Made by a program: the position numbers and the translations under genes. From Nitrospirales bacterium (GTDB lineage Bacteria; Nitrospirota; Nitrospiria; Nitrospirales; NS-4), in NCBI GenBank assembly GCA_030648395.1, contig JAUSHW010000201.1, positions 1,046 to 65,045 of the forward strand: a stretch of DNA of 64,000 nt. Reading direction: 5' to 3'. Below the pieces are notes generated by a model that saw nothing but the letters and a program-made list of their open reading frames with translations, was not told where the DNA came from and searched no databases. Of this stretch, positions 53,856 to 53,958 are shown piece after piece; the stretch's first letter is position 1, and each line of letters begins with the position of its first letter.

Positions 53856-53958
53856 GGCGTGGGCCGGGAATCGAACCCGGAAGTCCGTTCGTAAATTGGT
53901 ACGGACCAGACCCTTACGGTCGCGACCCGCTGCTGGCGCGCCACTCGCCTTCCCACGT
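53856..53958 (-). ncRNA. tRNA-like element 1 (canonical T arm + acceptor, no canonical anticodon arm)
   Basis: Minus strand: ACGUGGG..GGCG-AGUGGCG-CGCC..[56 nt]..CCGGG-UUCGAUU-CCCGG-CCCACGC-C. 103 nt, no CCA. It nearly fills the 128-nt intergenic gap. Confidence 0.45.

Follow-up and report, generated by a model that had tools for sequence, protein, structure and literature searches.

Several RNAs take on the shape of a transfer RNA (tRNA), in whole or in part, without decoding. The eukaryotic mascRNA / MEN-beta RNA (RF01684) is a tRNA-like module of acceptor and T arm within a longer transcript, from which it is freed by ribonuclease (RNase) P and RNase Z, and both the tRNA-like domain of transfer-messenger RNA (tmRNA) and the YrlA Y RNAs mimic the acceptor, T arm, and D loop with no decoding anticodon. 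The Ro-binding stem of Y RNAs is built from the two ends of the molecule, and a loop caps their acceptor-like helix. Phage T4, for its part, makes stable small RNAs from its tRNA region (species 1 and 2, or RNA C and D) that depend on tRNA processing and whose function is unknown. Phages are already known to carry tRNAs, as well as a few irregular tRNAs. For bacteria and phages, Mukai et al. 2017 (PMC5389517) described irregular, tRNASec-like tRNAs, namely allo-tRNAs, selC* tRNAs, and 8/4 tRNA-Ser and tRNA-His. In the allo-tRNA group, the acceptor branch comprises 12 base pairs (bp) split 8/4 or 9/3, a tetraloop caps the long D stem, the anticodon stem is longer, and position 73 is mostly G or U. 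Among irregular tRNAs, forms with long variable arms do work in translation, and the same authors proposed some irregular tRNAs as regulatory non-coding RNAs (PMC5389517). Here, we describe an element of about 105 nucleotides (nt), at 53959..53855 on the minus strand of a 64,000-nt stretch of contig JAUSHW010000201.1 in assembly GCA_030648395.1 (“the window,” meaning the whole stretch that was analyzed), which is preserved by compensatory changes in all five of its helices, yet was missed by standard tRNA finders and Rfam.

The window is a phage genome, and the element lies inside the 128-nt gap between two minus-strand open reading frames (ORFs) of 136 and 91 amino acids (aa), as the first-pass annotation of this DNA had reported. 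A covariance model (R1) derived from the proposed structure and a single sequence, that of the window, matches positions 1467-1571 of L036, a related uncultured groundwater phage, from end to end (49 bits, E 2e-7), and the copy found there has the same length and architecture. The next-best matches of R1 are true tRNAs (window tRNA-Thr, 21.8 bits; a tRNA of L001, 20.6 bits), and in these alignments the 4-bp stem and 7-nt loop of the element fall on the genuine anticodon arm, that of the phage tRNA-Thr included.

In the two-sequence alignment, standard pairs fill 54 of the 56 pair cells (96.4%), and both sides have changed in 15 of the 28 pairs (acceptor three, D stem three, anticodon-like stem two, variable arm four, and T stem three). 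When the partner is slid by 1-3 columns, 0-2 double-changed pairs are left, and none of 500 shuffles reaches the observed value. Similarly, RNAalifold on a structure-blind MAFFT alignment recovers the anticodon-like stem and the variable arm, both with covariation. The stems have diverged and the unpaired parts are conserved: the GCA linker, the loop GUCGCG(A/G), the AGG after the anticodon-like stem, the T loop, the 12-nt variable-arm loop ACCAAnnnACGA (ACCAAyhyACGA), C73, and then a C with the U-tract that follows both copies. On the opposite strand, the G.U pairs of these helices would turn into C.A, which places the structure on the operon's sense strand. Judged by these substitutions, the element is a conserved structured RNA with helices kept by compensatory change, that is, a selectively maintained irregular tRNA-shaped RNA on the operon sense strand. 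As firm as its structure, conservation, and strand is its distribution, which is accessory and movable: the element follows the 136-aa gene in the window and the single-strand-binding protein (SSB) gene in L036. A two-sequence model run with filters off found no more elements of this kind (type 1) in the relatives, being absent from L042, L044, L045, and L046, and exact and degenerate pattern scans of IMG/VR found no type 1 element either.

The fold that both copies share is a class-II-like cloverleaf of five helices (coordinates are given in Table 1). The acceptor ACGUGGG/CCCACGC comprises 7 bp with A.C as first pair; adding G-1:C73 (G53959 with C53856), which is G-C in both homologues, gives an 8-bp closing helix with A.C second. 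The GG of the D loop is retained in L036. With A53931 unpaired, the linker AGCA that follows the D arm exceeds by 3 nt the lone N26 found in a tRNA. The anticodon-like arm of L036 reads CUGG / GUCGCGG / CCAG, with two double changes (G.U to C-G and C-G to U-A), and its variable arm reads UGCUCCU / ACCAACACACGA / AGGAGC-A, with four double-changed pairs and a loop identical at 9/12 positions; the T arm there is GGUGG / UUCGACU / CCGCC, with three double changes. The first-pass annotation had listed an acceptor with a first A.C pair, GGCG/CGCC, CCGGG-UUCGAUU-CCCGG, and a GUCCGU...ACGGAC hairpin, all of which are indeed found on the minus strand. It had also seen no anticodon arm, and here it has to be corrected, as a 4-bp stem closes the 7-nt loop GUCGCGA; this stem is kept in the homologue, so that its suggestion of a split tRNA finds no support. 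The GACC-GUAAG-GGUC hairpin that it proposed in place of that arm is part of the minimum-energy fold of the window copy, where it overlaps the anticodon-like stem, and is not conserved: L036 is 3 nt shorter at the linker 53908..53915 and has no counterpart of the hairpin.

Neither ARAGORN at default settings nor an Rfam scan at gathering thresholds (29 bits for RF00005) makes a call at the element, and ARAGORN with introns allowed, or in its tmRNA and mitochondrial-type searches, returns nothing there. Only at 70% thresholds does ARAGORN give a forced tRNA-Leu model, with an 11-nt “intron” and an anticodon stem of 3/5 pairs. An ordinary type-II tRNA fold, which the first-pass annotation had named as the outcome that would overturn it, is thus given by no detector, ARAGORN and the Rfam covariance models alike. 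Rfam rescanned permissively (E up to 10) yields sub-threshold matches throughout, among them selenocysteine tRNA (tRNA-Sec), best of the tRNA clan at 14.8 bits (cut-off 47), and mascRNA / MEN-beta at 15.7 bits against a 42.5-bit cut-off, the latter match resting on the T arm. The same scan showed that the 19-nt T arm is identical to that of a Deinococcus Y RNA.

The resemblance to tRNA nevertheless exceeds chance. We wrote a descriptor (T arm, flush 7-bp acceptor, 2-nt spacer, and D arm with GG in the loop) post hoc, after the element had been seen; in the window it matches three true tRNAs and the element, and nothing else, and its random rate is 0.0067 per 64-kilobase (kb) Markov-random window (4 in 600). 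The T arm and acceptor alone give 0.50 matches per random window and so are not rare.

Set beside a canonical tRNA, both copies have the 7-bp acceptor flush with a 5-bp T stem and a UUCRANY T loop, kept with covariation in L036, and the anticodon-like loop has 7 nt with U33 and a purine, G, at 37. The anticodon-like stem has 4 rather than 5 bp, a linker of 3-4 nt takes the place of the single nucleotide 26, position 8 carries A in the window copy and G in the L036 copy (hence no U8), and A14 is lost in L036. Like the class II tRNAs (Ser, Leu, and Tyr), the element has their arm order, the D-loop GG, a canonical T loop, and a variable arm that stands 1-3 nt ahead of the T stem. Unlike them, both copies carry a CGC triplet, which is no class II anticodon, and C73 in place of G73 or A73; the D/anticodon junction holds additional bases, 6-8 nt precede the variable arm, and the covariance score is far sub-threshold. 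The G-1:C73 pair of both copies gives an 8/5 branch as in tRNA-Sec, but the pair is invariant and so uninformative, and the D stem of 4-5 bp with a 7-9-nt loop, the 4-bp anticodon-like stem, and the 14.8 bits do not fit tRNA-Sec.

With the allo-tRNA group, the element shares the tRNA shape, a long variable arm, and an acceptor helix longer than 7 bp, as well as being missed or poorly scored by standard detectors and coming from metagenomes and phages. It differs in its 8/5 (or 7/5) branch, 4-bp D stem, 7-9-nt D loop, 4-bp anticodon-like stem, C73, and 12-nt variable-arm loop. The definition given in PMC5389517 therefore excludes it from the allo-tRNA/tRNA-Sec group, which is nonetheless the closest described kind.

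The likeness to mascRNA is one of working principle, as discussed below; that RNA is much smaller and shows no homology to the element. A tmRNA is not indicated, with the tmRNA mode of ARAGORN empty, no tag reading frame, and a length of just 105 nt. Apart from the identical T arm, Y RNAs differ in that the ends of the element form its acceptor helix, and the ORFs scanned showed no Ro (TROVE) gene. The T4 species 1 and 2 RNAs are likewise small and phage encoded, but come from within a tRNA gene cluster, whereas the element stands in a replication module.

Our tentative preference, held with somewhat less than even confidence, is for a non-decoding tRNA mimic released by tRNA-processing enzymes. 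Most likely, the RNA is cut out of the operon transcript and thereby also punctuates the operon. It would be transcribed on the minus strand as part of the replication-gene operon; we infer that it is made within the operon transcript because it lies on the sense strand, a scan found no promoter-like site upstream of it, and a U-tract follows both copies. Host tRNA-processing enzymes would free it from the polycistronic transcript, with RNase P probably cutting at the 5′ side of the acceptor/T-arm helix and the 3′ end presumably being fixed by termination at the U-tract or by trimming back to it. The product would be a stable RNA of about 105 nt, and the same cuts would part the upstream messenger RNA (mRNA) from the downstream mRNA. 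As the loops are conserved, the mature RNA is probably recognized in trans: the D/T-loop elbow and two conserved loops may engage a tRNA-binding partner, without decoding. This is the working principle of mascRNA. Of the explanations offered by the first-pass annotation, an aberrant tRNA or tRNA mimic thus pointed in the right direction, toward a conserved irregular tRNA shape, and an RNase P/Z processing signal is plausible as one part of the mechanism but leaves the conserved anticodon-like and variable-arm loops unexplained.

Several observations weigh against a processed mimic of this fold. By nearest-neighbor calculation, the cloverleaf lies about 10 kcal/mol above the minimum-energy fold of each sequence, the probability of the anticodon-like stem is about 0, and thermodynamic folding likewise gives the D stem a predicted pairing probability of about 0; three compensatory pairs back the D stem despite this prediction. 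The minimum-energy folds of the two homologues differ from each other. In addition, the CGC triplet of the loop matches GCG, the second commonest codon of the phage, which favors decoding over mimicry, and the U-tract is short (4 U) and was not flagged as a terminator by a simple scan. Finally, the pair counts come from a model-fitted alignment, and the independent sequences carrying the element are two only.

What stands at the same place in related phages bears on the first alternative. The relatives, recovered through the phosphoesterase and 136-aa proteins, form six lineages, with 136-aa proteins that are 88% to 64% identical to that of the window. In all six, the syntenic gap holds other spacers, 83 to 235 nt long and mutually unalignable, and every one is GC rich and structured and ends in a T-rich tract right before the ribosome-binding site of the next gene. 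L042 and L044 have a strong plain hairpin (11-13 bp; 13 bp in L042 by RNAfold) followed by UUUCUUU. The L042 hairpin aligns with the T arm, 3′ acceptor strand, and ribosome-binding region of the window (score 35 vs. a shuffle maximum of 26), and L042, the closest relative sampled, keeps only this hairpin homologous to T arm and 3′ acceptor. The unrelated syntenic spacers had prompted the idea that the element is a lineage-specific elaboration of a terminator hairpin; the homologue of L036, sitting in another gap, overturned it.

The spacers also yielded observations of their own. L045 and L046 encode an identical 134-aa protein (P0126), yet the spacers that follow, of 235 and 83 nt, are unrelated, which makes the gap a recombination (mosaic) junction. 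In L045 (674-908) and L043 (796-981, cut by the contig end), the syntenic gap holds a different structured RNA of about 215 nt, with a closing stem GGGCGCGCGG/CCGCGCGCCC and then AUUUUCU. It is conserved between the two, whose copies align with a score of 92 (shuffle maximum 23) and show seemingly compensatory changes; no Rfam match turned up at E up to 1.

The element might accordingly act in cis only, as a structured intercistronic spacer (a terminator or attenuator, a protector of the mRNA 3′ end, or an RNase P/E cut site) whose mature RNA has no role of its own, an account that we consider unlikely, if one to be taken seriously. It would agree with the GC-rich structured spacer and T-rich tract before the next ribosome-binding site in every relative, with the plain hairpins and UUUCUUU of L042 and L044, partly homologous to T arm and 3′ acceptor, and with the U-tract after both type 1 copies. 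Against this, the outer helix would suffice for a terminator or a cut site, leaving the covariation of the inner arms and the conserved loops unexplained; the element also occupies different gaps in the two phages. As regards an intrinsic (Rho-independent) terminator, a GC-rich hairpin with a U-tract directly behind it, the closing helix of the element runs into C-UUUU, and the scan flags neither the element nor the hairpins of L042 and L044.

That the element is an unorthodox working tRNA, reading GCG and supplementing the host tRNA pool for an abundant phage codon, we regard as doubtful. Charging would then fall to some synthetase, for example by way of G-1:C73 (His-like) or the long variable arm (Ser-like). 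The 7-nt loop with U33 and purine 37 and the CGC that is identical in both homologues speak for such a role, as does codon usage: GCG is the second most used codon (51 per 1000), and the true tRNAs of the phage also serve frequent codons, Thr CGU reading ACG (45 per 1000) and Gly UCC reading GGG/GGA. There is also the precedent of irregular tRNAs with long variable arms that function in translation (PMC5389517). The details of the arm argue the other way, with a stem of just 4 bp, extra nucleotides on both sides, no U8, an A14 not kept in L036, and G at position 32. G3-C70 in both copies, with no G3:U70, leaves the RNA without alanine identity, and Ser, Leu, and Tyr tRNAs have a discriminator other than C73, so that neither a class II nor an Ala identity set is fitted. 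CCA is not encoded, unlike in all three true tRNAs of the phage, whose cluster is 46 kb away, and the detector scores are far below threshold; moreover, GUCGCG recurs in the loop of another element, at about 1666-1790 of L036.

A decaying tRNA pseudogene with no present function is improbable. The lack of any detector call, the A.C mismatch at the first pair, and the absence of the element from L042 could be taken as signs of decay, as could the acceptor of real tRNAs with the same T arm, which is GCGUGGG/CCCACGC, with G1 rather than A1. Neutral decay would break helices, whereas here 54/56 pair cells are intact though 15 pairs are double-changed, and the loops are conserved as well; we reject the neutral reading because the helices are compensated rather than broken. 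A relic core of the phage attachment site attP, as the first-pass annotation had also considered, or a captured 3′ fragment of a host tRNA is hardly credible: a host tRNA's T arm and 3′ acceptor are indeed frequently duplicated in phage attachment sites, but here both acceptor strands and the D arm are present, the ORFs scanned include no integrase and no integrase gene adjoins the element, the homologue has diverged by compensation, unlike a copied host tRNA end, and the 22-nt T-arm and acceptor string has no exact match in 185,579 species genomes or IMG/VR. A relaxed T-loop pattern matches mostly archaeal tRNA-Gly, with the acceptor GCGUGGG/CCCACGC.

A second tRNA-shaped element (“type 2”), cloverleaf-like, occupies the next gap upstream (54671..54580). 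The 10-mer AGUGGCGCGC and the motif GUUCGAU occur both here and in the main element. A covariance model (R2) built from window 54663..54596 finds matches at 53-59 bits in L036/37/48, L045/46/47, and L043. In each of the four relative lineages with contigs reaching this position the element is conserved, its place being directly upstream of the small gene that comes before the 136-aa gene. The copies are 68-70 nt long and highly conserved in sequence (GGGAUAGCGUA...GCGCGCC...GGAGGAGC...GAUAACC), and the closing helix keeps G.A and A.A mismatches at its base; three pairs are double-changed, with one compensatory pair in each of three helices. A canonical T loop is found in the window copy only. 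The “anticodon” loop has just 4-6 nt (4 nt in the window), and for this reason type 2 cannot decode. Type 2 is not in Rfam, and six pattern matches in IMG/VR were dismissed as chance, lying in unrelated contigs. The replication operon of the phage group thus carries tRNA-shaped RNAs of at least two kinds.

In L036, the gap after the SSB gene carries an array of tRNA-shaped elements, of which the homologue of the main element is the first. The third (about 1666-1790, equivalent to about 519-640 of L037) has type-2-like ends, GGGGGAUAGUGUAA ... GGAUAACCCCA, around an expanded middle of about 70 nt, with a loop, AGUCGCGU, that holds the GUCGCG motif as in the anticodon-like loop of the main element. 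Upstream of type 2 in L046 (1-105), ACUGGGUCGCGGC matches CACUGGGUCGCGGCC of L036; the surrounding structure differs and the contig start cuts it, and this may be a third variant of the main element.

The wider meaning is that a replication operon has two different tRNA-shaped RNAs between its cistrons, well away from the tRNA cluster: one bears an anticodon-like loop, the other a 4-nt loop. This suggests that the tRNA shape serves for more than decoding. If tRNA enzymes excise these RNAs, the operon would be punctuated as mitochondrial transcripts are; if the loops bind a partner, the RNAs could be an RNA-level counter-defense or a regulator. A bolder proposal, and to our minds a rather unlikely one, is that the main element represents a new class of irregular tRNA (8/5 branch, 4-bp anticodon stem, and conserved 12-nt variable-arm loop), charged by a non-cognate route and reading GCG, or else that it forms, together with the 68-nt cloverleaf RNA, a set of mimics neutralizing a tRNA-directed host defense or redirecting a tRNA-handling enzyme during replication. 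The covariance models built here are a direct way to seek more members in groundwater metagenomes.

Table 1. Features of the main element, its surroundings, and the type 2 element (window coordinates unless a contig is named)
Feature	Position	Strand	Remarks
136-aa ORF	54376..53966	-	upstream of the 128-nt gap
Closing (acceptor) helix, 5′ strand: G-1 then ACGUGGG	53952..53959	-	pairs with 53863..53856
D arm GGCG / loop AGUGGCG / CGCC	53935..53949	-	3/4 pairs double-changed vs. L036 GAGC/GCUC
Linker AGCA	53931..53934	-	GCA conserved in L036
Anticodon-like arm GCGG / loop GUCGCGA / CCGU	53916..53930	-	4-bp stem (53930-53927 with 53919-53916), 7-nt loop
Linker AAGGGUCU	53908..53915	-	belongs to the non-conserved GACC-GUAAG-GGUC hairpin
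Variable arm GGUCCGU / 12-nt loop ACCAAUUUACGA / ACGGACU	53882..53907	-	7 bp, long
T arm CCGGG / UUCGAUU / CCCGG	53864..53880	-	fits the T-loop consensus
Closing helix, 3′ strand: CCCACGC and C73	53856..53863	-	flush with the T stem
C then UUUU	53851..53855	-	CCA not encoded; L036 equivalent CUCUUUUAUU
Shine-Dalgarno AAGGAG of the 91-aa gene	53842..53847	-	ATG at 53837
91-aa ORF	53837..53562	-	downstream of the 128-nt gap
Type 2 element, 68 nt	54596..54663	-	between the SSB gene and a 68-aa gene
Type 2 copy in L036	1588-1656		found with R2
Type 2 copy in L045	4-72		found with R2
Type 2 copy in L046	106-174		found with R2
Type 2 copy in L043	126-195		found with R2

Short repeats of the element were also counted. 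The shared 10-mer AGUGGCGCGC occurs in three copies in the window against 0.41 expected; the third exact copy, AGTGGCGCGC, lies at 7665-7674 (minus strand) in the 172-nt spacer between tRNA-Met and tRNA-Gly, with no tRNA-like context, and that spacer ends in a very AT-rich, promoter-like stretch (7740-7799). The variable-arm loop ACCAAnnnACGA likewise has three copies in the window against 0.31 expected; we rejected this enrichment as a related signal, as it stems from two paralogous coding genes and is unrelated. GGGTCGCGR is not enriched in the window.

As for the genome itself, the window encodes a large terminase subunit, a portal protein, an SNF2-type helicase, a primase-polymerase/VapE protein, a DNA polymerase, a Gp2.5-like SSB, an exonuclease, and a phosphoesterase. 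The DNA polymerase shares about 44% identity with its counterparts in Pseudomonas phage JG054, Escherichia phage CAjan, and relatives, and searches of cultured phages with megablast and blastn found no DNA similarity to the locus or to either tRNA-shaped element. Its canonical tRNAs, called by ARAGORN and by Rfam at gathering thresholds, are tRNA-Met, tRNA-Gly, and tRNA-Thr at 7551-7955. The database entry for the exact 136-aa protein, a hypothetical protein, comes from a 65.7-kb contig of a “Nitrospirales bacterium” metagenome-assembled genome, and L035 in SRR13727527 is a contig identical to that of the window. The 91-aa protein has no homologue apart from itself, and the 136-aa protein has five only; the AlphaFold model of the latter is confident (predicted local distance difference test score, pLDDT, 89), and the PDB offers no match by fold or by sequence.

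Elsewhere in the window, a 212-aa ORF at 47119-47757 (minus strand) matches PF18909 (dATP/dGTP diphosphohydrolase, N-terminal; E 4.5e-10), which hints at modified-nucleotide metabolism. Small paralogous genes at about 560-720 and about 1120-1270, both on the minus strand, have a long near-identical stretch (...HPGKPKYEGPSTGWFTLLHHAGEPVEYSANVQERIA...) in common, and 33527-45082 (plus strand) is one open reading frame of 3851 aa. Strings of T arm plus CCCAC with no ARAGORN tRNA call occur in genome contigs L051, L054, L057, L060, and L064, that of L060 sitting just upstream of a tRNA gene; these may be tRNA fragments of attachment (att) sites.

In more distant phages, tRNA genes often directly precede the phosphoesterase homologue (L001 2852-2946; L003 2707-2782; L012 and L022 2918-2991; L007 2329-2768). 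They include types with a CUA anticodon (amber suppressor) and a 95-nt tRNA-Ile(UAU) with a long variable arm, and in L040 a gene with an RNA-ligase domain lies near the phosphoesterase homologue. The phosphoesterase may function in tRNA or RNA end-healing.

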